Sequence record: OZ346158.1
Length of the DNA stretch: 64,000 bases
Origin: a phage
Direction: 5' to 3' (one strand)
The notes below the pieces were generated by a model. The model searched no databases. It worked only from the letters and a program-made list of their open reading frames with translations, and was not told where the DNA came from. This document shows, one piece after another, positions 13,640 to 61,976 of this stretch; within the stretch, counting starts at the first letter, position 1; every line of letters starts with the position of its first letter. Both the position numbers and the translations under genes were made by a program.

Positions 13640-13686
13640 GATTATTTTTAGATGGCCTTGACTTCAGGGCCATCAATAAAGTAAAC
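13640..13686 (+). repeat. 47-bp conserved intergenic element, copy 1 (hairpin gatggcc/ggccatc)
   Basis: Identical to 14271-14317; near-identical to 18010-18058. Confidence 0.85.
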
Positions 13687-13719
13687 TAATCCCAGTTAAG
13701 CGAAAAAGGAGGCTTGAAG

Positions 13720-13839
13720 ATGAGCACTACACGCCAACACACAAAGGTAACGATTATCGTTTGCATCATTGGTTACATCCTGGCGCAAATGTTGATGGGT
13801 AGCGCCAATGATTTCGCAAAATTTTTCTTAGACTTTTAA
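13720..13839 (+). CDS. small hydrophobic protein (39 aa)
   Basis: SD aaaaggagg; TM-like IIVCIIGYILAQMLM. Confidence 0.4.
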   Translation: MSTTRQHTKVTIIVCIIGYILAQMLMGSANDFAKFFLDF

Positions 13840-13867
13840 TTGACAAGCTAACTTAAATCAGTATAAT
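13840..13867 (+). promoter_or_regulatory. sigma70-like promoter TTGACA-N16-TATAAT
   Basis: Perfect hexamers. Confidence 0.6.
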
Positions 13868-13919
13868 ACTAAGCACATAAACGGGAAAACTTCCCAGAAC
13901 ACCAAAAGGAGAAAACATT

Positions 13920-14270
13920 ATGAATACTTCCATCACTATGACCGCCGAAGAAAAAGCCCTGCAGATCGCCGCTCTGAAAAAACAGATTGCAGAACTTGAA
14001 GACAAGATCGACAATTTTGAAATCGACGAAGACAAGTACGACGATAAATATGATGAATGGTTAGACGAGATCTACGGCGAAATTATGATCGGAAACATTT
14101 CTTTTCTTCCGTCGCGTATCCTCAAGGAGCTAGATCCTATCGCTTACCGCTGCGGATTTAGCGACTACATCGACAGCCTGGATATTGAGGACGATGAAGA
14201 ATACCAGGAATTACAGACAGAGTTAGAAGAAGCAAAAGAAGAGCTTGCAGAACTGGAAGAAAACGAGTAA
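13920..14270 (+). CDS. highly acidic coiled-coil protein (candidate DNA mimic)
   Basis: D/E-rich throughout (EDKIDNFEIDEDKYDDKYDEW...DIEDDEEYQELQTELEEAKEELAELEENE). Confidence 0.55.
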   Translation: MNTSITMTAEEKALQIAALKKQIAELEDKIDNFEIDEDKYDDKYDEWLDEIYGEIMIGNISFLPSRILKELDPIAYRCGFSDYIDSLDIEDDEEYQELQTELEEAKEELAELEENE

Positions 14271-14317
14271 GATTATTTTTAGATGGCCTTGACTTCAGGG
14301 CCATCAATAAAGTAAAC
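14271..14317 (+). repeat. 47-bp conserved intergenic element, copy 2
   Basis: Exact repeat of 13640-13686. Confidence 0.85.
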
Positions 14318-14359
14318 TTTATACTGTTAACACTGAACTAATGCATAGGAGTTAAAACC

Positions 14360-14605
14360 ATGGCAGCACTAATCACCAAATATTATGCCCCTACCAACAC
14401 CAAAAGCGCCCGTATCATGGTAAAAGGCTTCGGACGTAAAAAGGTGTACACCTGGGATTATGCCTTAGACACGGAAGACAACTACACCAACGCGATGACC
14501 GATTTTATTAATGATCTGAACACGCGGATCTTGACAAATTATAAAATTACCGATATTGCCTATATAGGGGAAGGCGGGATCTGTTTTGTCGGTATCGTCA
14601 AATAA
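14360..14605 (+). CDS. hypothetical protein
   Basis: SD ataggagtt. Confidence 0.55.
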   Translation: MAALITKYYAPTNTKSARIMVKGFGRKKVYTWDYALDTEDNYTNAMTDFINDLNTRILTNYKITDIAYIGEGGICFVGIVK

Positions 14606-14680
14606 GCTGTTTTTTCGGTGGTCCTGGTAGCAGGGCCATCTATAAAGATAGTTTATCAATACAATGAAAGGAGAAAGTAC

Positions 14681-15034
14681 ATGATCAGCGGGGCAAGTTT
14701 TATTATTGGCGCTATTGCTACGGCTTTAATTGTAAACAAGATCCAATCTAAAAACGAAAAAGATAGCAACGCCCTTACAGAATACCCGTTTTGGGTATTC
14801 AACGACAATGAAGACTATATTATCAAGTACAAGAATGAGAAGGGCGACCAGGTAACACCTCGACCGATCCCGGCTTACAAGATGCAAGAAACACTATACC
14901 GCCTAAAGGCTGGAGGCGCAAAAATCGTAGACTTTTGGGGATACGATCACACAGATCAGGAAGTTATAAAGCGCCGTATCCGGGCTATTCAGGCCAATAT
15001 TGAAGTTAGCAAGGGGGGAATATATGAAGATTAA
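14681..15034 (+). CDS. hypothetical membrane-anchored protein
   Basis: SD gaaaggagaaag; N-terminal TM FIIGAIATALIV. Confidence 0.5.
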   Translation: MISGASFIIGAIATALIVNKIQSKNEKDSNALTEYPFWVFNDNEDYIIKYKNEKGDQVTPRPIPAYKMQETLYRLKAGGAKIVDFWGYDHTDQEVIKRRIRAIQANIEVSKGGIYED

Positions 15035-15221
15035 TTTTGAGAAGATTGTAAAGCGATCTCATGCTTCCGAAGAGCTGCCGGAACGCCGCCAGCGCAACAA
15101 TAAACTGAATAAGCCAAAAAGATTTGGGAAGATCTGGCGGAATCATTATGATCGCAAATTACCGGGCCTGCTTTTGGAACGTGAACGACAGGCGGAACGA
15201 TACCGCCACAAAGGCAAATAA
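15024..15221 (+). CDS. small basic protein
   Basis: SD aaggggggaa; Arg/Lys-rich. Confidence 0.45.
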   Translation: MKINFEKIVKRSHASEELPERRQRNNKLNKPKRFGKIWRNHYDRKLPGLLLERERQAERYRHKGK

Positions 15222-15230
15222 CAACCAACG

Positions 15231-15256
15231 CCCCGCCATTGTGCGGGGCTTTTTAT
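15231..15256 (+). terminator. intrinsic terminator
   Basis: gccccgc-cattg-tgcggggc followed by TTTTTATTT. Confidence 0.7.
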
Positions 15257-15403
15257 TTCTATCCTACAAATAGCGCCCCTGGTTGGCCCTGTAAGCGCCA
15301 AAAAGGCCCCACCTATGCAATCGCCCCCCCTTTAACCTGAAAACATCGCTTAGGGCCGTTTTATGGCGTTAAAAATATCATTGACAGTGATTTTATTTAA
15401 AGC

Positions 15404-15431
15404 TTGACATCTTAAACAGGTTAGCTATACT
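15404..15431 (+). promoter_or_regulatory. sigma70-like promoter TTGACA-N16-TATACT
   Basis: Read directly; a second TTGACA lies 23 nt upstream. Confidence 0.55.
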
Positions 15432-15463
15432 AACCACATCAAAGAGAGAAAGGAGTAAACGCC

Positions 15464-15724
15464 ATGCGTAAATTAAAAAATTTTGATAAAGTTGATGTTG
15501 TCCTGAATAATTTTTACTACTGCAACAACAAGGCCATTTGGTGGCGTGATAGTTCCACCGATAAAGTCAAGGCGCGCTTTCTCCAGGGGCACTGGCAAGG
15601 CCGCCCAGTGATTAAAATCATGGGGCAATTGGTAGCGTTTAAAAATTGCCGCCGTGTTGATGACGTTGAAGAGATCTTGAATATTTTACGCCACAATAAT
15701 TTAAAAAATAGTGTTGACAAGTAA
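15464..15724 (+). CDS. hypothetical protein
   Basis: SD gaaaggagtaaacg. Confidence 0.55.
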   Translation: MRKLKNFDKVDVVLNNFYYCNNKAIWWRDSSTDKVKARFLQGHWQGRPVIKIMGQLVAFKNCRRVDDVEEILNILRHNNLKNSVDK

Positions 15725-15741
15725 ATCTCAATAAGTATACT
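15714..15741 (+). promoter_or_regulatory. sigma70-like promoter TTGACA-N16-TATACT, followed by 5' hairpin ggcgggaagttttcccgcc
   Basis: Read directly. Confidence 0.55.
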
Positions 15742-15798
15742 TAAGCACACAGGCGGGAAGTTTTCCCGCCACTAACAAAGAAAATAGGAGAAAATATC

Positions 15799-16422
15799 AT
15801 GACCACCGTTAACATTACCACAGGTTGCAATTTATCTTTCGACGTGCTGACCGACGAACAAAAAGAAAAAGCTATTGAAATGGTCCGCGAAAGAGAAGAA
15901 CACAGCGGAGAGGATTTTTTCGCAGAAAGTGTAATTGAATATTATAAAGAACAAGTTTTTCCAGAGTACGGCCTTGAAGATACCGATGTACATTGGTCCG
16001 GCTTTTGGTGTCAAGGCGATGGCGCGTCAATTAATGCTGAAAATGTAGACTTAGAGAAATTCTTGCGTAAAGTCAAGGCCCTGACCAAGTTCCGATCAAT
16101 TCGTCACTTGTTCGGCACAATGCACGATGGCGAACTATCAGCCAGTGTTGAACGCGACAAGTACAGCCATTACAGCCATGAAAACACTGTAAGCGGATAT
16201 ATTGATACTACCTGGCTAGATCTGACCGCAAAACAAGAAAATAAAGTAGAAGATCTGGAAGAGCTGATCACCGAGACGGTACGGGAGCTATCCCGCAAGG
16301 TTTATGTAGACCTGGAGGAGGCCTATCTTGAACAGTTTACTACCGAAAACCTGATCGGCCTTATTGAAGCCAATGATTGGCGGTTTGATGTGGATGAATA
16401 TGGAGAAATGAGTTTTTCATAA
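15799..16422 (+). CDS. hypothetical acidic protein
   Basis: SD aataggagaaa; 207 aa, E/D-rich. Confidence 0.55.
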   Translation: MTTVNITTGCNLSFDVLTDEQKEKAIEMVREREEHSGEDFFAESVIEYYKEQVFPEYGLEDTDVHWSGFWCQGDGASINAENVDLEKFLRKVKALTKFRSIRHLFGTMHDGELSASVERDKYSHYSHENTVSGYIDTTWLDLTAKQENKVEDLEELITETVRELSRKVYVDLEEAYLEQFTTENLIGLIEANDWRFDVDEYGEMSFS

Positions 16423-16513
16423 ATAAAGTGTTGCAATAATCTAAAAACCTGCTATATTAAAACTTAAGGGGGAGAGATGACTTGCCCCCACACAAAACAA
16501 AGAGGAAAACATC

Positions 16514-16894
16514 ATGAAAAACACTACTAAAGCTATTGACACCGTTATGTTTAACCTGGTTACATTCCGTGAAGATATGAAAGATCTTCCACGTGAAACA
16601 GTGTGCGACCATATCGAAAACTATCGCAAACTAATCAAAGAGTTGCCTTTAAAACGTGACCAGTACGCGGCTAACGCTATGCTTAACGCCATGATCAAGA
16701 AAATGATTCAGTGCGATTTGACTTTAGCTTATGATTATGCAGGTGGTCGTTTTGCAGTATACAATCAGCCCGTGCCTGGTATGAGCACCACAGAAGAATT
16801 GCACGCGTTAAATCTAAAACAAGACGTATGGGATAACATGCCCCGCGTGGTGGTGTGGGCAGAAAGCGGAAAGATTTACGGCGATAATTTTTAA
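16514..16894 (+). CDS. hypothetical protein
   Basis: SD agaggaaaac. Confidence 0.55.
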   Translation: MKNTTKAIDTVMFNLVTFREDMKDLPRETVCDHIENYRKLIKELPLKRDQYAANAMLNAMIKKMIQCDLTLAYDYAGGRFAVYNQPVPGMSTTEELHALNLKQDVWDNMPRVVVWAESGKIYGDNF

Positions 16895-16958
16895 TCAGGT
16901 AACAGGCGGCATATTTGCCGCCTTATTGTTAAACAGAACTGCAAAAGAGGTACATAGA

Positions 16959-17330
16959 ATGGAATTTATTATTTTGGCTGTAGTAGTTGCCTTGTTCAAC
17001 GCCTGGATCGCTGGCAAGATAGGTAGATCCGCTTTTCTATGGTTTGTTATATCTATTTTCCTGGGAGTGGTTGCAACTATTGTATTGGTTATCCTTGCAA
17101 TTGTTGACAAGGGGAATAATAGAAAGGGTAAAGTATTTTCAGACCTGTACGACGCTCAAACGTTTGTCAACGCCTATTATAGTGATCTTCCAGTCTCCCT
17201 ACGTTGCAGCCTTGCACAACAGGTTTTCGATGAAGCTAAAACCAGAGATCACGCCCATGAGATTTGTTTAACTGAGGCGGATCGCCTATTTGAGAGGAAT
17301 AGAAAATATGTGGACCAGCCGTTTAAATAA
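16959..17330 (+). CDS. membrane protein (2 TM)
   Basis: FIILAVVVALFNAWIA and LWFVISIFLGVVATIVLVILAIV. Confidence 0.5.
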   Translation: MEFIILAVVVALFNAWIAGKIGRSAFLWFVISIFLGVVATIVLVILAIVDKGNNRKGKVFSDLYDAQTFVNAYYSDLPVSLRCSLAQQVFDEAKTRDHAHEICLTEADRLFERNRKYVDQPFK

Positions 17331-17547
17331 TGCCACGTTAATTAACCCCTTTAGTGAAGATTTGAAGCCAGCCGCCTGGCGGGATGGATTCAATAACGAA
17401 AGCTTTATTTTCAGGCCTGATCTTAAGGAATTTTATAACAATGGATCGAACAACGACAGAGATAATTTTTCTTGTAATGTGCGTGGTGATAATACTCCTG
17501 GGGGCCATTGCAAACCACGTCACTGCTAACAGGAGGAAAGGGGAGAC

Positions 17548-17668
17548 GATGACACCCAAGGATAAGCCCCGTACCGATAAGGCGCGCCGTGTTATGGTAT
17601 GGCTTGAGATCATCGCCCTTGAAATATTGTTAGGCGTAGGGATGTATTTTATCGCTGTAAGTAATTGA
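17548..17668 (+). CDS. small membrane protein
   Basis: SD aacaggaggaaagggg; TM VMVWLEIIALEILLGVGMYFIAV. Confidence 0.4.
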
Positions 17669-17808
17669 TAACGGCCCCGATCCCTGGGGCCTAACTTTTC
17701 AAATTTTTTTCTCCCTGAGTGTTGCAATCCGATCCAGAATATGGATAATAACAATCAACGGGGAGACACTCCCCACCGCATAGACAAAGTTCCAAAAGGA
17801 GAAACAAA

Positions 17809-18009
17809 ATGAGCAACAATATCCGCGTTATTAACTTCAAAAAAGAAGAAAAAATTGCCGTGCTGATTGACGGTCAAGAAATCTTTAAAGGTGATTATGA
17901 AGATCATCAAACGGCGATTAGTATCACTCGCGTGATTGGTTACCATAATTTTTACCCTCAAGGCGCTGAGGCAGCAGTAAAACGAATTAAAGAGATTGTA
18001 GGCCTGTAA
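17809..18009 (+). CDS. hypothetical protein
   Basis: SD caaaaggagaaac. Confidence 0.55.
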   Translation: MSNNIRVINFKKEEKIAVLIDGQEIFKGDYEDHQTAISITRVIGYHNFYPQGAEAAVKRIKEIVGL

Positions 18010-18058
18010 AATTTATTTTTAGATGGCCTTGACTCCAGGGCCATCAATAAAGTAAATT
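18010..18058 (+). repeat. conserved intergenic element, copy 3 (2 mismatches)
   Basis: tttttagatggccttgactccagggccatcaataaagtaaa. Confidence 0.8.
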
Positions 18059-18100
18059 TAAACCCTGTTAAAATAATCAGTGCAAAAAGGAGTAATGATC

Positions 18101-18400
18101 ATGTTTATCCAGGCTAATAATCTTTATTTCTTTGATGGTCAGATCGTAGACGGCGTGGAGGTGGAAATCACCGGGTGCCCTGGCGGTCAGGTTATGACTT
18201 TTCGGAATAATGCCTTTGATGATTCTCATATCGTTATGAGAATGGAAGTTAGTAAGCTGGATGACAAGAAAACACTCATTGATTATTCCGTGAAAGATCA
18301 TCCAGACTACCACATGATCTATGGTGATTTGTGCATTGTTGACCGTGACAAGGTGGGCGGCATTGTGATCGCTATTGTGAACGATGTTTTCTCAAACTAA
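18101..18400 (+). CDS. hypothetical protein
   Basis: SD aaaaaggagtaatg. Confidence 0.5.
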   Translation: MFIQANNLYFFDGQIVDGVEVEITGCPGGQVMTFRNNAFDDSHIVMRMEVSKLDDKKTLIDYSVKDHPDYHMIYGDLCIVDRDKVGGIVIAIVNDVFSN

Positions 18401-18417
18401 TTTCAGCAGGTGATTTT

Positions 18418-18768
18418 ATGAAAGTAAAACTATATTACCTTAATGAGCTTAACCCCCTTGCCCAGGTCCGCGCCATGGCTAATACCTTGATTTGTGAGAA
18501 ATCTGTATATTGTGTTGAGCTTAACTCCATGCGTGAACGTCTCAAAGGTGGTTACTTTGACATCCATGCTGCAATCAACGGCCTGAATATGGAATTTATC
18601 CGCTTACGTAACAGCCGCCAGAATCTGGGAAGAATGGAACAAGATCCGGCCCACCTTCGTAAGCTGGTTATTGAAAATCATCTAATGTTTAATGCCGATG
18701 GTGATTATTACCATTTTCACCGTAAACGCTGGTACCGTAGCGGCAATATAGGAAAGAATGCAAAATAA
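18418..18768 (+). CDS. hypothetical protein
   Basis: ORF. Confidence 0.5.
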   Translation: MKVKLYYLNELNPLAQVRAMANTLICEKSVYCVELNSMRERLKGGYFDIHAAINGLNMEFIRLRNSRQNLGRMEQDPAHLRKLVIENHLMFNADGDYYHFHRKRWYRSGNIGKNAK

Positions 18769-18976
18769 GGCCCCTGGCAGGGCCTGCAGCGATATAATCA
18801 CATAAAGGCTATGCGGTTGCATAGCCTTTATTATTTTGGCGTTACAGCGGCCCCCAAGGCGCTTAAAAAAATTTTTAAAGAAGTACTTGCATCAAGTCCT
18901 ACAATATGGATAATAAAGGGTGTCGGGGGGGCGGTGAGGCCTCCAATCATTAACCGGATAGATAGGAGTTAAAACC

Positions 18977-19261
18977 ATGGCTATTGTTACCGTTGGCGAT
19001 GTAGTAGAAATGGAAGCCAAATACTTAAAAGCTGGTATGCATATCATACGGAATGATCAAGAATTGTTATTAACCATGGTTGAATATAATCCCGGTCAGG
19101 ATTATCCAAGCATTGACTACTTTTTCCAGTATGTTGATGAAGAATTAAAAGAGGATGAGGCTTATCAGGGTGAATTTTGTAATTTCTTTTGCCCTGATGA
19201 GGTTGTAAAAGTTATCTATCAACCTGGCGTACCTTTCCCGCTGCACGCTATCAACAAATAA
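18977..19261 (+). CDS. hypothetical protein
   Basis: SD gataggagtt. Confidence 0.55.
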   Translation: MAIVTVGDVVEMEAKYLKAGMHIIRNDQELLLTMVEYNPGQDYPSIDYFFQYVDEELKEDEAYQGEFCNFFCPDEVVKVIYQPGVPFPLHAINK

Positions 19262-19316
19262 ACCTGGCGGGGCCGAAAAGGCCCCCAATTATGAAAATAA
19301 AGAGAGGCAAATCATC

Positions 19317-19550
19317 ATGATGGAACAAATTAAACGCGCCGAGGCTATTAATGGCAACGTGATCTATTTTGTCAGCAAAAACGAAAAAGGCGTACCCTAT
19401 GCGGCGGTAATAGTACAGCCTGACGGCGATTATTGGTGTACTGTGTACGGCGCTTATTCTTTTGGGCGTCCAGTGCATGATAAAATTTTGAAAGTAGCGA
19501 ACCCTACCGGGAAAAATATCACAGCAGAAAAATTTTTTGAAAATAGTTGA
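19317..19550 (+). CDS. hypothetical protein
   Basis: SD aagagaggcaaa. Confidence 0.5.
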   Translation: MMEQIKRAEAINGNVIYFVSKNEKGVPYAAVIVQPDGDYWCTVYGAYSFGRPVHDKILKVANPTGKNITAEKFFENS

Positions 19551-19621
19551 CATGACCATATAAGACTGTAGTATATAAATCAAAGGGGCAAGCCCCACCA
19601 ACCACAAAGAGGATAAAAATC

Positions 19622-19801
19622 ATGGCTATTATTGCAAAGACTGAGATCGTAGGCTTGGATTCTATTCTCCTCGCATATGAGGAAGCTATAGAAATGTATG
19701 TGGTTTCCTATGGTGAGTATATCCGTGAATATAAATCTATTGATCTGGCTTTTGAATGTTATATTCGCCAGGTTAATAAAGCGTACGATGATTATCGTTA
19801 A
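19622..19801 (+). CDS. hypothetical small protein
   Basis: SD aaagaggataaaaat; downstream of promoter at about 19547. Confidence 0.45.
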   Translation: MAIIAKTEIVGLDSILLAYEEAIEMYVVSYGEYIREYKSIDLAFECYIRQVNKAYDDYR

Positions 19802-19891
19802 AATAGTTTGAAAACAAACAACCATCTTACAAAGCATAATACATAAGGCGGTGGAATGGTCCGCCACCTGGAACAAGAAGAGGAAAACAAA

Positions 19892-19996
19892 ATGAAACAG
19901 AAATTAATTGATGCGGTGATCCTGGTTATTGCCCTGGGTATTGGCCTGATTGCAACCATGGCTAATGTGATCTTGTCTTCCAACGGTATCGGGTGA
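19892..19996 (+). CDS. small single-TM protein (34 aa)
   Basis: SD aagaggaaaac; AVILVIALGIGLIATMA. Confidence 0.35.
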   Translation: MKQKLIDAVILVIALGIGLIATMANVILSSNGIG

Positions 19997-20311
19997 GGTT
20001 GGCAAATGATCACTAACAAAACAGGCAAGCGGAATTTTTACTCAACTTACAGATCGGCAAGCCTGAGATCTGGTATTGCACTAAAACACCACGTGACGAA
20101 ATGAAAGACTTCACCGCCACGCTGCAACGGGTAAAGATATCCATCACGCAGAAAAAGGCCTTGATAGTGGTGGAAGGTGAGATCCCTCAAACCGTTGTTA
20201 TAGTTGAGCGTACAGCATAGTTTAATTTATACCGATACCCGAAAATTAACCAACAAAGCATAAACAGGCGGTTACCGCCGCCTTAAACGTAGCAGAAAGA
20301 GGATAGACACA

Positions 20312-20596
20312 ATGAAAAAGATGATCGCAGTGGTTGCCCTGGTTGTTGGACTTAATGCGCCTGTAATGGCTAAAGAGCTGGCAAAAGAGGTTAATCTAAC
20401 GGATATTCATGCCGTCAATCGAATCGGGGTTACTTATCGCTTATGCCTTGCCGCTAAAACTTTTAAGGACGGCACGACAGAGTACTACGGATTCGAAGGT
20501 GTCCGGTGCGGTGAACTTGCTCGCGACCTTAAGGAAGATCCAGACCTGGAGGATCTGCCCATCACCGTAAACGGGAAAACTTACGTAAACCGTTAA
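20312..20596 (+). CDS. secreted/periplasmic small protein
   Basis: Signal peptide MKKMIAVVALVVGLNAPVMA. Confidence 0.55.
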   Translation: MKKMIAVVALVVGLNAPVMAKELAKEVNLTDIHAVNRIGVTYRLCLAAKTFKDGTTEYYGFEGVRCGELARDLKEDPDLEDLPITVNGKTYVNR

Positions 20597-20744
20597 CCAT
20601 GATAAAGATAATCATCACCTTGGCATCGTGGCGGGATCGCTGGCGCTCTTTCTCCTTATGGTTAGGTATGTGCTGATCGGTATTGTCCTGGTAGTCAGTG
20701 ATCTATTGGAAACGGTTGGCACCTTGTTTTAAAGAGCGGTAAAA

Positions 20745-20936
20745 ATGAATATCGAACAAGTTAGAAAGGTATTGGCGGTACTGCGTTATCATAATCATAG
20801 AAAGGTCATAGACGATCCTGATTATGTCGATTCAAGCCTGGAAGGGGATACACTACAAGCCATAAGTAACATGCAAGAATTGCTAAAGCGCATGACAGAG
20901 AAAAACCGACCGGACTACATAGGCGAAAAAATATAA
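20745..20936 (+). CDS. hypothetical protein
   Basis: ORF followed by terminator hairpin at about 20955. Confidence 0.5.
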   Translation: MNIEQVRKVLAVLRYHNHRKVIDDPDYVDSSLEGDTLQAISNMQELLKRMTEKNRPDYIGEKI

Positions 20937-21015
20937 TCCTTATAAACTACAAAACAGGGCTTGCAATGGTCCTGTTTTTTGTTATACTTGTTTCACGGCA
21001 GGCGCCTGGCGACGG

Positions 21016-21031
21016 GGGAGACAATCACCGG
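21016..21031 (-). repeat. inverted copy of 16-mer ccggtgattgtctccc (extended similarity 20996-21035)
   Basis: Exact reverse complement of 11879-11894; about 85 percent match to 12014-12048. Confidence 0.8.
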
Positions 21032-21063
21032 GTGTGCCTGCTATATAAAAACTATAAAAACCG

Positions 21064-54680: not shown

Positions 54681-55442
54681 TTAAAGTTCCATAAAGTTTT
54701 CTACAGTTTCAATAAATGCTTTATCAGAGAAAGCGTCAACAGCACCGTTAAACCATACAGGGATCCCGCGATCCTCATATTGATAAAGGTCGCTACGTGA
54801 AATGCCACTTCCATCTGCACTCTGCGAATCATACTTGTTTACAATCAGCAGTTTTGTGCCTTTACAAGTAGCAGGAAACAATTCCCAGTTAAAATTAATA
54901 ACTGTGTTAGAACAACCTACCAGGATCACCATATCATTGCTTGTGAGAGATGTCAACAGGTCATACATGTCTGTATACTTAGGAGCAACCTCACCGAAGA
55001 ACACTACATTGGGCTTAACCCAGGTATACTTGCCTGTATCTACCTCCGTGTATCCGATATTTTTAATTACATCATTACCTTCAGCATCTTCGTAGGTGAT
55101 TTCAGGCAAATACCCGTGGACATGTAAAATATCTTCATGTTTTACACCAGCACGCTCCAGCAAATCATCTACATTGGTAGTAAGGTTGATCACACGACCA
55201 GACCAGCGGGAATACCACTCAGCGATCCGAAGATGTGCAAGGTTAGGATCAACACTGCCCAGAGCTACACGACGTGCATTGTAAAAGTCATGCACCTTAT
55301 AGTAGTTCTTGGCAAAGGTGTGGATGTTGCACACCTCATCGATGCTGAAATTCTCCCACATTGCAGTGCTACCAGATCGGAAAGTGGGAATACCAGATTC
55401 AGCGCTCAAACCAGCACCGGAGATAATAATCAGTCGTCGCAT
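54681..55442 (-). CDS. Sir2-family NAD-dependent deacylase / ADP-ribosyltransferase
   Basis: GAGLSAESGIPTFR, TTNVDDLLERAG, catalytic HVHG, PNVVFFGE; no obvious zinc-ribbon cysteines. Confidence 0.8.
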   Translation of the reverse strand: MRRLIIISGAGLSAESGIPTFRSGSTAMWENFSIDEVCNIHTFAKNYYKVHDFYNARRVALGSVDPNLAHLRIAEWYSRWSGRVINLTTNVDDLLERAGVKHEDILHVHGYLPEITYEDAEGNDVIKNIGYTEVDTGKYTWVKPNVVFFGEVAPKYTDMYDLLTSLTSNDMVILVGCSNTVINFNWELFPATCKGTKLLIVNKYDSQSADGSGISRSDLYQYEDRGIPVWFNGAVDAFSDKAFIETVENFMEL

Positions 55443-55450
55443 AAGTGTCC

Positions 55451-55801
55451 TCAGTAGATGTTTTGTTTAATCTCTATTCCAAACTTCTTGAATGAGTCAG
55501 CAGCAAGCATAAATTTACGAGCTGCCGATGGATTAGAAGTATGCACGAAAATAATCACGTTGTCAATAAGTGGTGGCTTTCCGAATACAAGTTTCTCCTC
55601 TAGCGCAGAGAAGCAGTCGTACCCTTCAAGCACTTCACCTAGATCATTGTCAAAATGCCACTCAGAAACGCGCCTGTAGAGCTTTCTATTATCGTTAATA
55701 AAATCCATGAACTCAGAAGAGTTCTTCAGCCAAAGAGCATCTTGGATTCCGTAATTTGACGGATCTCTCAAGTCATCTAGCCACACAATCAACTTCTTCA
55801 T
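55451..55801 (-). CDS. hypothetical protein
   Basis: ORF; start MKKLIVW overlaps upstream stop. Confidence 0.5.
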   Translation of the reverse strand: MKKLIVWLDDLRDPSNYGIQDALWLKNSSEFMDFINDNRKLYRRVSEWHFDNDLGEVLEGYDCFSALEEKLVFGKPPLIDNVIIFVHTSNPSAARKFMLAADSFKKFGIEIKQNIY

Positions 55802-56733
55802 TGCATATAGTCCTCGTTGTGAAAATAGCAATCAAGTATCTCACGGCGTTCCTGCTCCAGGAGGCAGTTCCACACATCTTCTGTGTAATTGCTACGAATG
55901 AAGTTTACCATGCCATAAAACTCTTCGTCAATACGTTTAAAGATATCATCATCCCAAATCTTCCAAGCTTTACCCCTCATTACGGCCTTCCGTGCCAAAT
56001 AGTATGGAGACTTGATCTTCAGCTGCAGGTCATAAGGGTAGTAAGGCTTACGGATCATATACCCTTCGCCCCTTGTTTCTGCAGCTAATTCTTTTGCATA
56101 GCTGAACGGGATTTCACGCAAAGTGTGAGGACGTTTTGCACCAAGGTATTTGGCAATCCCATCTAAAGCTGCTTCTGGTAGCATTATTCCAGAATCATTA
56201 TATCTGCAACCTATCAAATATGCGCCATGGTCTTCTTGAACAATATGCGGATCTGAAGGGTGACAAATTTCAAACATGAATGTCATGTTTTCATTGCCCA
56301 TAACCTTCTTGATAAGATCTAAATTACCACATTGCTCTTGGATGGTTTCCTTTGCAAGGTTACAATATGGAGAATCAAGAGACCCGGTTGTTGAGAACAA
56401 TAGGTCACCTTTATGAGATGATACCACACCAAGGAATCCGTTCTTTTTCTCTACCGCAGTCACAAGCTTATTGTCAGGCAGGTTGGTGGAGTTTTCTCCC
56501 AAGTTAAACACTTTTGTGAAGGGCCATGCCACAACATTTCCTTCATTACCTACAACAATGCCTCGGCACTCCAGTAAACGAGGGGACAAATGCCATAAAT
56601 TGTTGTAAAATACTTTTCTAGCATATTTATAGATCTTTAACCCGAGATCTGGGTAATACCTACTGGTTACAAGACCTTTGTCAACTAGGTCGTCTGCATT
56701 AAAATACTTCATCATACGTTCCTCATTTGTCAT
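55798..56733 (-). CDS. RNA ligase-like nucleotidyltransferase
   Basis: Motif I VEKKNGFLG (Kx[DN]G), motif IV GEGYMIRKP, motif V LQLKIKSP; divergently adjacent to kinase/phosphoesterase pair. Confidence 0.6.
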   Translation of the reverse strand: MTNEERMMKYFNADDLVDKGLVTSRYYPDLGLKIYKYARKVFYNNLWHLSPRLLECRGIVVGNEGNVVAWPFTKVFNLGENSTNLPDNKLVTAVEKKNGFLGVVSSHKGDLLFSTTGSLDSPYCNLAKETIQEQCGNLDLIKKVMGNENMTFMFEICHPSDPHIVQEDHGAYLIGCRYNDSGIMLPEAALDGIAKYLGAKRPHTLREIPFSYAKELAAETRGEGYMIRKPYYPYDLQLKIKSPYYLARKAVMRGKAWKIWDDDIFKRIDEEFYGMVNFIRSNYTEDVWNCLLEQERREILDCYFHNEDYMQ

Positions 56734-56833
56734 TTTGTCAGTCTATCCTGCCACACAAATAACCTAGTGTCAACACTTGAAATTAACAAAACAGTTAGAT
56801 ATACTATCGTTGAAATTAAAACGGAGGGTCACT

Positions 56834-57244
56834 ATGTCTAAAATGCTATATATCGTGCGTGGTCTACCAGGGTCTGGCAAATCAACACTGGCAAATGCGC
56901 TATCTTTAGAGGGTCTGTATCCACATTTTGAGAACGACATGTTCTGGTATGACGATGACGGCAATTACAACTGGGATGCAAGTAAAGTAACACTCGCAGC
57001 GAAATGGTGCAAAGATAACGTAGAAGATATGATGCGTATGGGATACGACCGTATCGTGGTAAGTAATACGTTTACAAAAGAAAAACATGTGCAGGAATAT
57101 GTTGACATGGCAATCAGTCATGGGTATAGTTATACCGTGATCGTGGTTGAAAACCGCCACGGTAATAAAAGCATTCATGATGTTCCAGACAAGGTTGTGG
57201 ATCGTATGGAACGCCAGCTTAAAAACTGCATTAAACTTAAATGA
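56834..57244 (+). CDS. P-loop kinase, polynucleotide 5'-kinase-like
   Basis: YIVRGLPGSGKSTLA resembles T4 Pnk kinase P-loop; SD aacggagggtcact. Confidence 0.6.
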   Translation: MSKMLYIVRGLPGSGKSTLANALSLEGLYPHFENDMFWYDDDGNYNWDASKVTLAAKWCKDNVEDMMRMGYDRIVVSNTFTKEKHVQEYVDMAISHGYSYTVIVVENRHGNKSIHDVPDKVVDRMERQLKNCIKLK

Positions 57245-57251
57245 GGAATGT

Positions 57252-57806
57252 ATGAAATACTTTGTAACAAGCGACACACACTTTCTCCACCAGCGGGTCA
57301 TGGAGTTTGATTCATGTCAAAAACACAGATCTCAGTATGATCACAATCTTGACAGTATGAATGCGGGAATCATCGCCGAATGGAACTCTGTTGTGTCACC
57401 TGCAGACACTGTGTTCCACTTGGGAGATATTGCGTGCACTAATGATAAGAATATCAACAACTTACTTCCAGATATTCTAAATATGTTGAACGGACATATT
57501 ATTCTTGTTCGTGGCAACCATGACACACGGACGACTGTCAGAATTATGAAAGAGTTCGGTCATGAGGTTGTAGATTATTACGAGCTTCGCCACAACAAGA
57601 ATTTGATCTGTATGAGCCATTACCAATTTGCAAAGTGGAACAGAAAGCCTCACGGATCAGTCCAACTGTTCGGTCATGCTCACGGAACCACACAACAGTT
57701 GTTTGGCAGGCAGCTTGATGTCGGTTGGGATGTGTGGGGGAGACTCTTACCATTAGAAGAGGCATACCGTATTGCAATGAGTCTTGCTATTGACAGCGGG
57801 GAGTAA
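57252..57806 (+). CDS. calcineurin-like metallophosphoesterase
   Basis: DTHF, GDI, GNHD, GHAH metal-binding motifs in order. Confidence 0.75.
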   Translation: MKYFVTSDTHFLHQRVMEFDSCQKHRSQYDHNLDSMNAGIIAEWNSVVSPADTVFHLGDIACTNDKNINNLLPDILNMLNGHIILVRGNHDTRTTVRIMKEFGHEVVDYYELRHNKNLICMSHYQFAKWNRKPHGSVQLFGHAHGTTQQLFGRQLDVGWDVWGRLLPLEEAYRIAMSLAIDSGE

Positions 57807-57853
57807 TCCCTGCTATTTTAAAGAAAATTGCCACACAAGGAGAATCAGGAGAT

Positions 57854-58204
57854 ATGAAAGATGGGGATAAGCTGCTATATCTTAAAGTCCCCCTTGAAAT
57901 ACTGTCTATGTCAAAAGTTTTGAATGACACAACTGGGGAGGTTGTTGTTCTTGACTTGTATGACAAGATCGTATACTGCTACCTGCACAACTGGTATAAG
58001 CTTGGAGGAAGTTCACGCTTCACACCCAGCACAAGGAAAATTGCAGCAGATGTTGGGATAAAGAAAACAAAAGCAGCAGCGTGCGTTAAAACTTTAGAAT
58101 GTGCAGGAGTGGTTGAAATATCCACACAAGGGAGAGGTAAAAGATGCACATTTTCCAAAGTTTTGCCACCAGAAGAGGTTATTCGAATGTCAACAACTGG
58201 TTAG
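57854..58204 (+). CDS. winged-helix DNA-binding protein (replication-initiator O N-terminal-domain-like, tentative)
   Basis: HTH segment TPSTRKIAADVGIKKTKAAACVKTLECAGVVEI; immediately upstream of iteron array. Confidence 0.5.
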   Translation: MKDGDKLLYLKVPLEILSMSKVLNDTTGEVVVLDLYDKIVYCYLHNWYKLGGSSRFTPSTRKIAADVGIKKTKAAACVKTLECAGVVEISTQGRGKRCTFSKVLPPEEVIRMSTTG

Positions 58205-58278
58205 ACCAGTAAAAACTTAAATATCTGTACTATAAGGATTCGTATGTTTTATGTTCGCTCTGGAACAGAGGTTAGTAA

Positions 58279-58361
58279 CTGTCCGTGATACGGACACTAC
58301 TGTCCGTCACGCGGACACATCTGCCCGTAATACGGACACTAACTGTCCGTGATACGGACAC
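58279..58361. repeat. Four tandem about 21-bp palindromic iterons (consensus cTGTCCGTgatACGGACAc)
   Basis: Copies at 58279, 58300, 58321, 58343; each has 7-bp inverted arms with a 3-nt spacer; followed by AT-rich tract 58362-58490. Confidence 0.85.
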
Positions 58362-58864
58362 ATAAAGAATATAACTAAAATAACTAAATAATAAAAAATA
58401 AAAGATCTAGTACTTATGGTACTAAGTACATATACTTAACTTATGTAGAATATACTAGATCCTAAGTACCATGTTTTAAATTTATTACTTACTATGGGTA
58501 GTGTCGGCCCTTCATTGGCACTCGCCTACGAGGGGCGAGATGCCGGGCCTCCCTGGTGCACACAATAACAGAAGTGCATACATGCAGGTCTGGTAACATG
58601 TGTGGGAGCGAAGCGATAGCGCAGGCCAAAGGCCGAGCACTGATGTGGACCACCGACGAAAGCTTGCCAGCGCCGTAAGGAGTCGGTTGAGAGTCTCCCG
58701 CGCGAGCTTGGATGAAGTTTATGTGTGGAAACGGACAAGAAGGCCCCTAAATCGCTCCACAGCTATATAAACTATACCAGGTAAGGCAATCGCACCAGTT
58801 TGATAGAAAAGCTCGTTACAAAGCGATACAGTGAGTTTTTCTATAACTTGAAGAGGAGGTAGTT

Positions 58865-59443
58865 ATGAGTCCACGCAAAGATGACCGTGAAAAGATTGCA
58901 AAACGTTATCAGAATGAAGAACAGATGGAGAAAACTTTCAAGTGGAAGCCAGGTTTCCAGCGTAATCATTCTAACGCTCGTGATCGTAAGCATCCGGATA
59001 AGTGGTTAACACCGCCAAATGATGGCATTCAGGTTGGTGATGAGAAGGAGCTGTCACCTGGAAAAGATGGCAACTACATTCGAACTAAGGAAGCAGGTCC
59101 AAAGGATGACAGCTATCTTGTAGATAAGGTTCTTGACGGTGTTGATGTAGGTGTTGACACTGTACGAAACCTTTTTCTTGGTTGGTATCGCACAGGGTTT
59201 TTCGACATCAAGGCTATTCGTCGTGTTTGTGATATTAAAAAGTCTGCCTACGATGATGATTCCCTACATCGCACTCTGAGACAATACTCAGAGAGATACG
59301 GTCATCCAGTTATCACTCTTGACGATATTAACGAAGTTATGTATCATGTAGAGGTTGTTGCAGGTAGGTTCGGTGATGCATATCTCGGTATTCTCTCTGC
59401 AAAGGATGAGGTAATGTTAAATAAGATTTACTATGAACGCTGA
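58865..59443 (+). CDS. hypothetical protein
   Basis: Strong SD gaagaggaggtag. Confidence 0.55.
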   Translation: MSPRKDDREKIAKRYQNEEQMEKTFKWKPGFQRNHSNARDRKHPDKWLTPPNDGIQVGDEKELSPGKDGNYIRTKEAGPKDDSYLVDKVLDGVDVGVDTVRNLFLGWYRTGFFDIKAIRRVCDIKKSAYDDDSLHRTLRQYSERYGHPVITLDDINEVMYHVEVVAGRFGDAYLGILSAKDEVMLNKIYYER

Positions 59444-59453
59444 GGGGCGATTA

Positions 59454-59642
59454 ATGAACAATCCGGTAGCAAAGAACTGTAATAAATTCAACAAGTCTGC
59501 GATTCACACTGACAGGAAAAAGAGTTGGTTTCCTGACATTGACGAGGAGCTTGAGAGTTACTTTGAAGATTTAGTCACCAATGCAGAGGAGGTTGCGATT
59601 AAAGAATACGCAGACAGGAGGGATAAGGCCGGAATCTGTTGA
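59454..59642 (+). CDS. hypothetical small protein
   Basis: ORF. Confidence 0.45.
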   Translation: MNNPVAKNCNKFNKSAIHTDRKKSWFPDIDEELESYFEDLVTNAEEVAIKEYADRRDKAGIC

Positions 59643-59718
59643 CAAAAATAATGTTACCTGATAAGATCTGCAATATGATGTGATACAATTTTAACTTACG
59701 AGGTCTACAGGTAATGCT

Positions 59719-59961
59719 ATGTTTAAGGTTAAGCTCGTTTTTCGTTCCATGAATGAGGATTATTTAGAAGATGAAGGTGAATTTCGTGCACTGGATGATG
59801 CAATAGATTTTGCCAACGACTTAGCTTGTATGAATACGGGTTATGGGCTATGCTGTTGGGATGGTGGTGTTCAGATCGGTGATAGCAAGATCTTCTACTT
59901 CTACCCTGAGCCCGATAACAAACAAATTAAGTATGTTTTATTTATTTGTGCTTTACAATGA
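59719..59961 (+). CDS. hypothetical protein
   Basis: ORF with SD ttacgaggtctac. Confidence 0.5.
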   Translation: MFKVKLVFRSMNEDYLEDEGEFRALDDAIDFANDLACMNTGYGLCCWDGGVQIGDSKIFYFYPEPDNKQIKYVLFICALQ

Positions 59962-60250
59962 GGTTGTTTTCGTGTATCATGATGAATATCCAATTTAAAG
60001 ATGAATTTGATGGCTTTATCTCCGGATGCTTTGAAACAGGGTTCGGAGAAGACTGAGTTCCCCTTAGAGGGCTTGATAGTGCACCACACTTAAAATGGTA
60101 GGGGCAGCCAGCACATGACGATGTGACTCCAGCCAACCTGTAACAAGGTCGAGCCGAAGCGCGGGTAATAGGCCTCTGGTAACCCACTTGTTGGGTCTTG
60201 CTGGTCCAGGACGCTGGACAAGTCGCAGGGAACACCACCCTGCGGCGAAC

Positions 60251-60279
60251 TTGACAATCAGTATTTGCTATGATAAAAT
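60251..60279 (+). promoter_or_regulatory. sigma70-like promoter TTGACA-N17-TAAAAT
   Basis: Read directly. Confidence 0.55.
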
Positions 60280-60307
60280 CCACCTATCACGTGATAATGG
60301 AGGAAAC

Positions 60308-60646
60308 ATGGCGGATACAACTAAAAAGCGTCGCCGTAGAGGCAGACCTCTGAAAGAGGAGTCCAACGCCATTCAGCTAGAGAAGAACATCCTTGATATG
60401 AAGGAATCTTTTATAGCGATGGTTCCAGAAGCTCACAAAGTTTTAAGAGAGCTGATGTTGGACCCGAAAACCAAACAAAATATTCGTCAAAGCATTGCAG
60501 AGTATGTTCTTGATAAGGCAGACCGAATGCAGGAAGAATATGATGAGATGTTTGGTGAAGAGGAAGAGGTGGTAGTAGAAGAGGCTGAAAAACCAGCACC
60601 TTTTATGCCATTCACCACAGAAATACAGCCTGTTGGCAATAGTTAA
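60308..60646 (+). CDS. basic-N-terminus/acidic-C-terminus DNA-binding-like protein
   Basis: KKRRRRGRPLKE followed by acidic tail; SD aatggaggaaac. Confidence 0.5.
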   Translation: MADTTKKRRRRGRPLKEESNAIQLEKNILDMKESFIAMVPEAHKVLRELMLDPKTKQNIRQSIAEYVLDKADRMQEEYDEMFGEEEEVVVEEAEKPAPFMPFTTEIQPVGNS

Positions 60647-60742
60647 AATATTTTCTTGACAAACTTTGCTTAACAGTGTAATATTGTAAACATGGTCTCC
60701 CACCTTTTCTGGCGGCTAAGGTGTAAAAGAAAGCCACCCAGT

Positions 60743-60817
60743 GCCCTGTTAGCTTAGTGGATAAAGCAGCGGCCTTCTAAGCCGTTGACACTGGTTCGAG
60801 TCCAGTACGGGGTGCCA
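60743..60817 (+). tRNA. tRNA-Arg (anticodon UCU)
   Basis: Hand-folded cloverleaf: acceptor gccctgt/acggggt, anticodon loop cuUCUaa, T-loop ttcgagt, encoded CCA. Confidence 0.85.
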
Positions 60818-60821
60818 AATT

Positions 60822-60908
60822 GGGGAGTTATCCCGTAGAGGTAGCGGTGTAGACTGTAAATCTATTGTCATTGCGACTCGGGTGGTTCGACTCCACCACT
60901 CCCCACCA
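60822..60908 (+). tRNA. tRNA-Tyr (anticodon GUA), long variable arm
   Basis: Acceptor ggggagt/actcccc, anticodon loop ctGTAaa, T-loop ttcgact, CCA. Confidence 0.85.
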
Positions 60909-61022
60909 AATTTATATTTTTAGATGCATAAATAATACAGATAATGGCATTGATATTTATCGTCGTTTATACTAGTCACTAACTGCTCGAAAATCAGTGT
61001 CATTATCAGTATAATTTATAAA

Positions 61023-61113
61023 GGAGGGTAGGGAGCAATGGTGCTCAAGCGGTCTTGAAAACCGTCCCGTTGAGGATGACTCGATGATGGTTCGATTCCA
61101 TTACTCTCCGCCA
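61023..61113 (+). tRNA. tRNA-Ser (anticodon UGA), long variable arm
   Basis: Acceptor ggagggt/actctcc, anticodon loop ctTGAaa, T-loop ttcgatt, CCA. Confidence 0.8.
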
Positions 61114-61211
61114 CATTGTTGACCTTGTAATTAAGCGAAAGCCGGAAGCAGAACCGGATTATCAAATGTTACAGTCGTCATCGCCGACTAGCAACATGGT
61201 CAACATACTGA

Positions 61212-61308
61212 GCTAGGTAAGCCCTTTGGCAAGGGCGAGGATTTTTAATCCTGAAAATAGACGAGGTAGTCGTTGAATACATAGGTGGTTCGATTCCATC
61301 ACCTAGCA
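61212..61308 (+). tRNA. atypical tRNA-like gene (possible tRNA-Lys UUU with about 30-nt variable region)
   Basis: Perfect 7-bp acceptor gctaggt/acctagc, D-arm gccc..gggc, T-loop ttcgatt; anticodon arm imperfect; 97 nt. Confidence 0.4.
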
Positions 61309-61315
61309 CCTTTTT

Positions 61316-61388
61316 GCTGATGTAGCACAATCGGTAGTGCAATTGATTTGTAATCAATAGGTTGTAGGTTCAAGTCCTGCCATCAGCA
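61316..61388 (+). tRNA. tRNA-Thr (anticodon UGU)
   Basis: Acceptor gctgatg/catcagc, anticodon stem attga/tcaat, loop ttTGTaa, T-loop ttcaagt. Confidence 0.85.
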
Positions 61389-61392
61389 CCAA

Positions 61393-61467
61393 GGCCCTGT
61401 AGCTGGAAGGTTCAAGCAAGCGACTCATAATCGCCAGACGGTGGTTCAATTCCACCCAGGGCCACCA
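61393..61467 (+). tRNA. tRNA-Met/Ile2 (anticodon CAU)
   Basis: Acceptor ggccctg/cagggcc, anticodon loop ctCATaa, T-loop ttcaatt, CCA. Confidence 0.85.
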
Positions 61468-61478
61468 AATAGTAAATA

Positions 61479-61555
61479 CTCCGCGTAGCTCAGCTTGGTA
61501 GAGCGCCTGATTTGGGATCAGGAGGTCGAGTGTTCGAATCACTCCGTGGAGACCA
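61479..61555 (+). tRNA. tRNA-Pro (anticodon UGG)
   Basis: D-arm tagctcagcttggtagagc, anticodon loop ttTGGga, T-loop ttcgaat, CCA. Confidence 0.85.
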
Positions 61556-61601
61556 CTTTCAGTTATACTTTAAACATATATAAACAAAAGGAACCTTTAA
61601 A

Positions 61602-61871
61602 ATGTATACACTTAAAATTGTAGAGCGTGTAAATCCAACTCATACCGTAGATTTTCGTGACGATTTCAATCCTCTGGCTGTAAATCTTCGAGAGTCATAT
61701 CATGAACTCAGCTGCGATGCAGTGGTGGTCTTTTTTGAAGACAACTCTGAAGGGGCGGTAGCTTGTGTTGTTGATAGTGAGCAGAAGTTTTATATTTACA
61801 GAGATGTAGATGCATACTTGATGAATGAAAACGCAGTTACTGTTAGAATCATCCACCGAGTGCCTCGATAA
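61602..61871 (+). CDS. hypothetical protein
   Basis: SD aaaggaacc. Confidence 0.5.
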   Translation: MYTLKIVERVNPTHTVDFRDDFNPLAVNLRESYHELSCDAVVVFFEDNSEGAVACVVDSEQKFYIYRDVDAYLMNENAVTVRIIHRVPR

Positions 61872-61976
61872 GTATTAGTCTCCTTTTAGTTAGTTTCGAT
61901 CTATTTAGGTTACTCAATTTTAACCCGCCCCGTTAGCTGTATAGCTGCGGGGTTTTTTCGTTTCTGGAGCCTTAAA

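Follow-up and report, generated by a model that had tools for sequence, protein, structure and literature searches.

The single-strand initiation (ssi) signals ssiA and ssiB of plasmid RSF1010 are read by the plasmid's own primase, and a G4-type 'G site' lies downstream of oriR in plasmid R1. RNA II of ColE1 and the R-loop RNAs of ori(uvsY) and ori(34) in phage T4 are transcripts that serve as primers or activators at origins. The lambda-type origin has four dyad-symmetric iterons followed by an AT-rich region. Satellite-plasmids of Vibrio crassostreae, cf-PISP and PISP, have recently been described (PMC13230959). The present analysis concerns a GC-rich block at positions 58497-58760 of a 64,000-nucleotide (nt) stretch of phage DNA (record OZ346158.1), called the window below. 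The block is a non-coding element under purifying selection, which consists of a hairpin, H1, and a core of ~109 nt. An earlier note on this sequence had proposed a structured non-coding RNA or a ribozyme-like element here, and missed its context, namely origin-like repeats directly upstream and homologues on satellite-like plasmids.

Conservation and covariation of the element

The whole window is from a Vequintavirus, an rV5-like Escherichia coli phage, and its nearest relative is Escherichia phage AlexBoehm (Bas56). A 701-nt segment spanning the block is 100% identical to AlexBoehm and 97-99.9% identical to most other rV5-like phages, and the region of the block was covered in 119 of the 119 phage records matched in a database search. 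The block has a GC content of 58.0%, against a mean of 42.6% (standard deviation 3.3) for 264-nt segments, and is the maximum among such segments of the 64 kb, only 8e-5 of which reach that value; the preceding 135 nt have 20% GC. The GC-rich block in an AT-rich setting described by the earlier note is therefore real, and so is the lack of open reading frames (ORFs) claimed for it, the 70-codon frame on the - strand included. Short ORFs of 31 and 56 amino acids (aa) on the + strand and of 53, 42 and 70 aa on the - strand overlap the block, and no frame is open with a common start across its eight phage and seven plasmid homologues, which contain 1-nt indels and stem substitutions that would be non-synonymous. 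Most deposited genomes leave the block unannotated, and two tiny hypothetical ORFs are called in it in the AlexBoehm record.

Divergence was compared among nine Vequintavirus copies, eight from close phages and the most distant one, L004, from IMG/VR, with codon positions 1+2 and 3 of the neighbouring genes as the rate reference. H1 differs by 0.021 among the close phages and by 0.109 from L004, and the core by 0.031 and 0.083. The corresponding values are 0.024-0.033 and 0.083 at codon positions 1+2, and 0.083-0.115 and 0.318 at codon position 3, those against L004 being from the gene of the 192-aa protein downstream. H1 and the core have thus changed 3-4 times more slowly than third codon positions of the flanking genes, at about the rate of codon positions 1+2, and the linker between them and the 3' part of the block have changed at a neutral-like rate (Table 1). 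In Murica and typing phage 5 the linker is shorter by a deletion of 18 nt, and substitutions disrupt the hairpin predicted within it. The 3' part contains a second ATGTGTGG at 58721-58729 and GGCCCCTAAATCGC at 58742-58755, the latter echoed in the plasmids. Exactly one copy of the core, as described by the covariance model R1, is found per phage and per plasmid, and no further copy was detected in the window or at positions 1-128,900 of the AlexBoehm record.

The minimum free energy (MFE) of the block is -99.9 kcal/mol, with z-scores of -1.06 on the + strand and -1.39 on the - strand, and it holds one perfect hairpin of at least 5 bp where 1.5 are expected from shuffles. Both pairs of complementary segments that had been pointed out earlier exist, ctcgcc/ggcgag as the inner stem of H1 and ggcc/ggcc at 58624-58634, but the pairing potential of the single sequence is at chance by MFE z-score and by hairpin count. 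The evidence for structure therefore comes from the comparison of homologues only. All 15 pairs of H1 are kept in four distinct sequences with no broken pair, and two of the 15 are doubly changed, from G-C to U-A, in plasmid L005. Stem F of the core reads ACCGAC/GTCGGT in phages and GCTGCC/GGCAGC in plasmids, three pairs being changed on both sides. Its flanks ATGTGGACC and GAGTCTCCCGCGCG and its loop are unchanged between phage and plasmids. The loop (58658-58681) is GAAAGCTTGCCAGCGCCGKAAGGA, invariant apart from one G/T, and if a GNRA tetraloop is formed, this sole variable base is its N. In the 20 distinct core sequences, pairing is seen in 90.3% of cells, compared with 27-52% for slid controls, the alignment having been fitted to the covariance model, and the covariation score of the core was reached by 0 of 500 shuffles. 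Covariation among homologues, the lack of which was to speak against a structured RNA, is thus present in H1 and stem F. Judged from these alignments, at least two helices are held by compensatory substitutions, and they appear well supported, on thin statistics. Such helices suggest action through base-pairing in a single-stranded nucleic acid, and compensatory change around an invariant loop points to a single-stranded fold that is read by a sequence-specific partner.

Two further helices were considered and set aside. It is possible in every case to draw the long-range helix GUGUGGGAG/CUCCCGCGC (58600-58608 with 58695-58703), and C-to-U changes opposite G preserve its pairing, but double compensatory changes are absent from it, its G/U-rich sequence pairs promiscuously, and it is regarded as unproven. 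The helix GGAC/GUCU passes through all four states (A-U, G-U, A-C and G-C) and so gives no evidence of constraint.

The structured non-coding RNA of the earlier note is upheld as to its non-coding nature, purifying selection and compensated helices, but no promoter or terminator is predicted for a discrete transcript, or at all between the + strand genes that flank the block, and the two strands fold equally well by MFE and RNAalifold energies. A + strand RNA would be favoured by co-orientation with the flanking genes, all of which lie on the + strand, by the purine richness of the + strand of the block and by the GNRA-type variation. A DNA form would be favoured by the near-perfect Watson-Crick hairpins and the lack of promoters.

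The covariance search that had been suggested gave no known family for the block at the gathering scores of Rfam 15, and at E up to 10 only rli43, mir-154 and UPD-PK2 appear, at chance level; the rli43 match has 23.9 bits against the 100 needed and lies mostly over the AT-rich region. No ribozyme family, and no family of 6S RNA, C4/CI antisense RNA or introns, is among the matches at either setting, so the ribozyme-like element is not borne out. Nothing was found in the plasmid loci at E up to 1. ARAGORN reports no tRNA or tmRNA in the block, and for the invariant loop no antisense target of at least 12 nt was found in phage or plasmid, only chance 10-11-mers. Some candidates were rejected. 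A hammerhead-like CUGAUGU...GAAA, noticed by eye, lacks a stem II and does not occur in the plasmids. A DnaA-box reading of ATGTGGA/TGTGTGGG gives only 6-7 matches out of 9 and leaves the hairpins unexplained. At the 5' edge, most phages have GTGTC and L004 has GGGTC, both T7-type primase sites, but their counts are at chance. TGGTATAGT, a putative - strand promoter located to the right of the block, occurs in the window and is not conserved in L004, L013 or L142.

Plasmids carrying the same core

In complete E. coli genomes the block is matched only on small plasmids, in unannotated DNA. Twenty plasmid copies were collected from complete E. coli genomes, PLSDB, one metagenome scan and capsid-protein look-ups. 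The plasmids are circular, 13.2-14.3 kb in size, non-mobilizable and restricted to E. coli; L007 (NZ_CP020521.1), L008-L011, L141, L143 and L154-L166 make up a tight family. They have 15-18 genes, the largest of which encode a 706-aa tape measure protein, a 348-aa capsid protein, a helix-turn-helix (HTH) protein of ~300 aa and a 267-aa Dit-like protein. The capsid protein belongs to PHROG 29 and is represented by 18 clusters at at least 82% identity, one of them with 441 member sequences. Compared with AlexBoehm, the Dit-like protein is 50% identical to the tail tube initiator, the tape measure protein has 25% identity, and an identity of 45% is found to bas56_0011. Several HTH proteins are encoded, including one of 284-306 aa beside the core, which has weak HTH_36 matches in most plasmids and, in L007, the one plasmid tested, weak matches to 'replication initiation' PHROGs. 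No replisome gene was called in the plasmids, and no other ORF is long enough for a terminase or portal. As is expected of a satellite, essential virion and replisome genes appear to be missing and homologues of helper structural genes are present. From this gene content, the 13-14 kb plasmids are predicted to be, and probably are, plasmid-borne satellites of Vequintaviruses.

The core and H1 are the strongest DNA shared by the plasmids with the phage (the window and AlexBoehm positions 1-50,000); the other matches are of 25-68 nt only, three of them in homologous tail genes. All 20 plasmids have one core copy, which lies downstream of variable iterons and AT-rich repeats in the order plasmid-specific iterons, AT-rich repeat, C/G-run hairpin and core. 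The core is located within 2-5 modules, each composed of TGTGTGGG and three short perfect hairpins, and hairpin density is well above chance: in L141 there are 8 against 2.5, a count that one shuffle in 500 matched. Downstream, the plasmid element is followed by strong sigma-70 promoters, and on the - strand of L009 two terminator-like hairpins are located at its left edge. The phage-type H1 is carried by L005 and absent from the other plasmids. The phage-type stem and loop are present in 13 of the 20 plasmids. The other seven (L010, L154, L155, L157-L159 and L165) have, between the same flanking motifs as those of stem F, a different 8-bp hairpin, GTCCGGAT...ATCCGGAC, with an 18-nt loop, which may point to an unsampled helper lineage. 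The only phage matches obtained with this alternative (E = 0.03) concern a part of the query ~100 nt downstream and an inverted repeat in the T5 terminal repeat, and were taken as chance.

A 17-mer scan of species-representative genomes gave chance matches only. IMG/VR contains one relative of the phage, and a capsid-gene scan of IMG/VR gave nothing. In the literature searched, there is no paper on these plasmids, or on non-coding RNAs or satellites of Vequintaviruses. One member of the set, L166 (NTNY01000053.1, a 30.1-kb contig), has at ~13450-21041 an insertion with APH, APH_6_hur, DDE transposase and TetR-type regulator genes, and is therefore, by its aminoglycoside phosphotransferase genes, a probable phage satellite carrying resistance genes. 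L006 (NZ_CP043822.1, 39.6 kb) has three copies of the element, the spacing of which fits a head-to-tail trimer of a 13.2-kb unit; this may be a true multimer or may have arisen in assembly.

The origin-like locus and a proposed role of the element

From 5' to 3', RNA-repair-type genes, a gene for a 116-aa HTH protein, four repeats and an AT-rich stretch precede the GC-rich block (Table 1). The 116-aa protein matches HTH_36 at E 8e-5, under the curated cut-off of Pfam, and PHROG 12838, 'replication initiation protein', at E 8.5e-80; it also has a weak match to PHROG 8102 of the same name. The repeats are annotated as repeat_region in phage pangalan, and the AT-rich stretch has a mean pairwise difference of 0.027 among the close phages. 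HTH gene, putative iterons and AT-rich stretch together resemble the layout of an origin. In L004 (positions 1819-2650, against 57854-58496 of the window), an unrelated, initiator-like 143-aa ORF of HTH type replaces the 116-aa gene, palindromic GATACATATTTGTATCA repeats replace the TGTCCGTGATACGGACA repeats, and an A-rich run precedes the block. The block itself and all downstream genes are kept despite this exchange, which suggests that the element is independent of initiator specificity.

Table 1. Features of the locus, in window coordinates
Feature	Position	Strand	Remarks
Winged-HTH gene, 116 aa, initiator-like	57854..58204	+	Pfam HTH_36, PHROG 12838
Four repeats with 21-22-bp spacing, each with palindrome TGTCCGTGATACGGACA	58276..58361	.	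Found by repeat search; iterons or operators
AT-rich DNA containing two GATC sites and nested inverted repeats	58362..58496	.	20% GC; candidate DNA-unwinding region
Hairpin H1, 5 + 4 + 6 bp with one bulged A	58506..58549	+	44 nt, 15 pairs
Linker, fast-evolving	58550..58596	+	Difference 0.26 among close phages, 0.33 against L004
Conserved core domain	58597..58705	+	109 nt; covariance model R1 score 117 bits
Stem F, 58652-58657 with 58682-58687	58652..58687	+	Encloses the 24-nt loop
3' part	58706..58760	+	Difference 0.10 among close phages, 0.38 against L004
12-bp hairpin (ATAGAAAAGCTC / GAGTTTTTCTAT)	58803..58844	+	Inverted repeat, 92% complementary
192-aa ORF, first gene 3' of the block	58865..59443	+	PHROG 12226, of unknown function; Vequintavirus-restricted

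The iteron and AT-rich array is the one neighbour of the element common to the phages, L004 and the plasmids, and for this reason an origin-accessory role is favoured. Our tentative choice, at a little under even confidence, is that the element serves as an accessory module of the origin, which a replication factor of the phage reads in the form of RNA or unwound DNA and which satellites have copied. As would be looked for in an ssi signal, it adjoins iterons and an AT-rich region, and its hairpins have been maintained in evolution. It would be an initiator-independent accessory module of the phage replication origin. Once the initiator had opened the AT-rich DNA, the adjoining element would fold as a single strand, which could be the unwound strand itself or a + strand transcript made near the origin. 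Via the invariant loop and flanks it would be bound by a replication factor of the phage, for which the 692-aa DnaB-type primase/helicase is the most obvious candidate, and recognition would trigger priming or helicase loading. The partner is presumably encoded by the phage or the host, since phage and plasmids have no non-structural protein in common. Besides the primase/helicase, the phage encodes a PIF1-like helicase and a polymerase, and the plasmids encode none of these. Alone, the plasmids would replicate by their own Rep and iterons; by keeping the helper's module, they would be amplified by the helper replisome after infection. That a structured RNA or single-stranded DNA handle at the origin of the virulent rV5-like phages has been copied and multiplied by E. 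coli plasmid satellites of a family so far undescribed to capture the replication or packaging machinery of the helper, as a helper-satellite cis-module of a kind not recognised before, is a possibility that we hold at somewhat under even confidence.

Several points weigh against this reading. The origin is predicted from its layout, the label of initiator comes from a PHROG family name and an HTH_36 match under the curated cut-off, and a repressor could be what binds the palindromic repeats, as its operators. The element shows no enrichment of T7-type primase sites. R1 has no match in loci from the related Vequintavirinae genera Mydovirus, Seunavirus and Justusliebigvirus, where gene order differs. 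The alternative hairpin of the seven plasmids has no phage counterpart in the database, which would mean that the loop is not indispensable or that other helpers exist, and the adjacency of core and iterons in the plasmids may reflect a single large intergenic region of cis-elements. The covariation comes from two or three lineages with few independent events, and folding energies favour neither strand.

A + strand structured RNA unrelated to replication is a rather unlikely alternative. It would be a leader or cis-regulatory RNA of an early operon, for example for antitermination or as a processing site, or a protein-binding RNA multiplied by the satellites; in the latter version, arrays of UGUGUGGG and hairpin modules would capture or titrate an RNA-binding protein of the helper. 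Co-transcription with the flanking genes is probable, since these all lie on the + strand with no promoter or terminator predicted between them. The purine-rich + strand, a variable loop position that fits a GNRA tetraloop (GUAA or GGAA), some G-U pairs on the + strand and the 2-5 hairpin modules of the plasmids, each preceded by TGTGTGGG and with a hairpin density well above chance, would also suit an RNA, and a second covarying block at 60040-60250 ends at an early promoter, so that structured intergenic elements may be a habit of the phage. On the other hand, a scan for sigma-70-like promoters, which did not cover phage-specific ones, gave none on the + strand upstream of the element for the phage and L009, and one weak candidate (9/12) ~270 nt upstream for L005. 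Strong promoters lie downstream in the plasmids, and thus the genes there do not need read-through. Wobble pairs are rare, by eye, in the short plasmid hairpins, antisense targets of at least 12 nt are missing from phage and plasmid, and neither strand folds better than the other.

The element could also be the pac recognition site of a headful-packaging helper, copied so that the helper terminase packages the satellites, which we regard as improbable. Satellites that use a helper terminase usually carry the cos or pac site of the helper, as in P4/P2 and the cos-type Staphylococcus aureus pathogenicity islands (SaPIs). This counts for a pac site, together with the facts that the element is the only DNA common to the plasmids and the compared phage parts besides a few 25-68-nt matches and that no plasmid ORF is long enough for terminase or portal. 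Compensatory stem changes around an invariant loop are, however, unexpected for a site read as duplex. In AlexBoehm coordinates, from which the distance was taken as the terminase gene is outside the window, the large terminase gene is at 683-2230 of the record and the block near 131.9 kb of 135.3 kb, and this is tens of kb by gene order and ~4 kb round the circularly permuted map. Moreover, a circularly permuted genome that lacks a defined pac terminus has been reported for Vequintaviruses (PMC8407724, PMC13211470). It is decidedly improbable that the block is a group of stable hairpins of a generic kind marking an operon boundary, which would have no specific partner and which the plasmids would have acquired via recombination; such a cluster would act as a protector of RNA 3' ends, a factor-dependent terminator or a transcriptional insulator. 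Consistent with such a cluster, the 60040-60250 block is alike in style and has its end exactly at the -35 element of a strong promoter, the plasmid element is followed by strong promoters and has two - strand terminator-like hairpins at its left edge, and the phage-type H1 in L005 alone among the plasmids shows recombination inside the element. It does not explain conservation equal to that of codon positions 1+2, and the identity of the 24-nt loop and flanks, where homologous proteins are only 25-50% identical, argues for sequence-specific recognition. Very improbable is a mere homology patch of ~60-110 bp identical to the helper, used for recombination-dependent replication or homology-facilitated transduction, in which structure would be irrelevant. 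Homology to T4 or SPP1 greatly improves the replication or transduction of plasmids, and the phage encodes an EndoVII-type packaging and recombination endonuclease, both of which count for the patch. It leaves the strong conservation within the phage genus unexplained, however, while the compensatory stem changes lower the identity and the central hairpin of seven plasmids is unlike that of any database phage. That the block encodes one or more small proteins, for example those of 31, 56 or 70 aa, seems close to negligible: AlexBoehm and some other records annotate small hypothetical ORFs, and stop codons are few in GC-rich DNA, but no frame or start codon is conserved, 1-nt indels occur, and the phage-plasmid differences are paired in stems and would be non-synonymous.

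With regard to the neighbourhood, collinearity of the window with the AlexBoehm record is limited to 55200-61900, and the window therefore comes from a close, circularly permuted relative of AlexBoehm. The flanking 116-aa and 192-aa proteins are found in the same 119-120 Vequintavirus records and nowhere else in the phage collection. The hairpin at 58803-58844 lies directly 5' of the 192-aa ORF's ribosome-binding site; divergence of the segment 58790-58864 is 0.032 among the close phages and 0.093 from L004, a coding-like conservation, and the hairpin may be a translational operator or processing site. The second block at 60040-60250 is GC-rich (0.51-0.53) and ORF-free, 91% identical in L004 and absent from the plasmids. 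Three hairpin pairs in it are changed on both sides (GTCCAG/CTGGAC to GCTCAG/CTGAGC; ACCCA/TGGGT to TCCCA/TGGGA), and the promoter at its end is sigma-70-like (60251-60279). An RNA-repair set, comprising RNA ligase, polynucleotide kinase and metallophosphoesterase genes, is located at 55798-57806, directly upstream of the origin-like locus, and a tRNA cluster ~2 kb downstream of it. Cumulative GC skew has its minimum at ~56.7-56.9 kb, where the direction of transcription switches. ARAGORN finds seven tRNAs in the window, all at 60743-61555. Among them, tRNA-Ser(TGA) at 61023-61113 is not in the AlexBoehm annotation, and a 99-nt gene at 61212-61310, annotated in the record as a 97-nt tRNA-Lys, is given an odd four-base anticodon and an Rfam score of only 35.5 bits. 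The motif CCTGG(N1-3)GGCC is present in seven copies, on the + strand only (12073, 12139, 12187, 15278, 17497, 18773 and 19263), mostly in intergenic GC-rich patches 5' of genes. Some copies are GGGGCC...GGCCCC hairpins followed by AAGGCCCC-type sequence resembling 58740-58749. This motif may have a phage-specific function, in regulation or as a terminator.

The element belongs to no described family, is universal in one phage genus and links this genus to apparently undescribed satellite-like plasmids. Biocontrol of E. coli makes wide use of rV5-like phages, which are also part of the BASEL collection, and the literature searched has no characterisation of their origin, of their early regulation or of any satellites. 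A defined stem with an invariant loop offers a small, mutable target for studying the start of replication in these phages. Through the element, E. coli plasmids of 13-14 kb that turn up in many sequencing runs are recognised as probably being satellites of a virulent myovirus. Since one of them has genes for aminoglycoside resistance (aph), such plasmids could be mobilised by phage therapy. If the shared module is indeed a handle for hijacking, the mechanism would be one not described for known satellite families, which to our knowledge share cos or pac sites with the helper or respond to helper proteins.

Comparison with known systems

The origin-accessory module proposed here is close in layout to the ssi signals of RSF1010 and R1. 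Like them, it is a non-coding, hairpin-forming segment that adjoins iterons and an AT-rich region, has its conserved bases in hairpins and is presumed to function after origin opening. It differs from them in being larger (H1 and a 109-nt core), in belonging to a virulent myovirus and in being shared with satellite-like plasmids. We know of no sequence similarity between ssi signals and the element, and the sequences were not compared. With the primer transcripts of ColE1 and T4, the element has in common a structured or G-rich sequence beside an unwinding region, with repeated UGUGUGGG runs on the + strand, whereas no promoter directed through it was found in the phage, and only weak candidates, on either strand, in the plasmids. 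The T4 origins have no iterons, which is a further difference from the phage locus. As in a lambda-type origin, an AT-rich stretch comes after four dyad repeats at about two helical turns, and an HTH gene is adjacent. Here, however, the repeats lie outside the gene, the gene product is of 116 aa, and a 260-nt GC-rich structured block follows.

As with the cos and pac sites of P4/P2 and cos-type SaPIs, a short non-coding sequence is common to a phage and to elements that depend on its machinery. Unlike those sites, this one is located beside origin-like repeats, tens of kb by gene order from the terminase, and has compensatory stem changes. The plasmids themselves resemble the cf-PISP and PISP of Vibrio in being circular, ~11-16 kb in size and equipped with their own replication functions and some virion genes (PMC13230959). 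The E. coli plasmids differ from the Vibrio PISP in that their capsid, Dit-like and tape-measure genes are related to those of a virulent myovirus, and in that they share a non-coding element with that myovirus.

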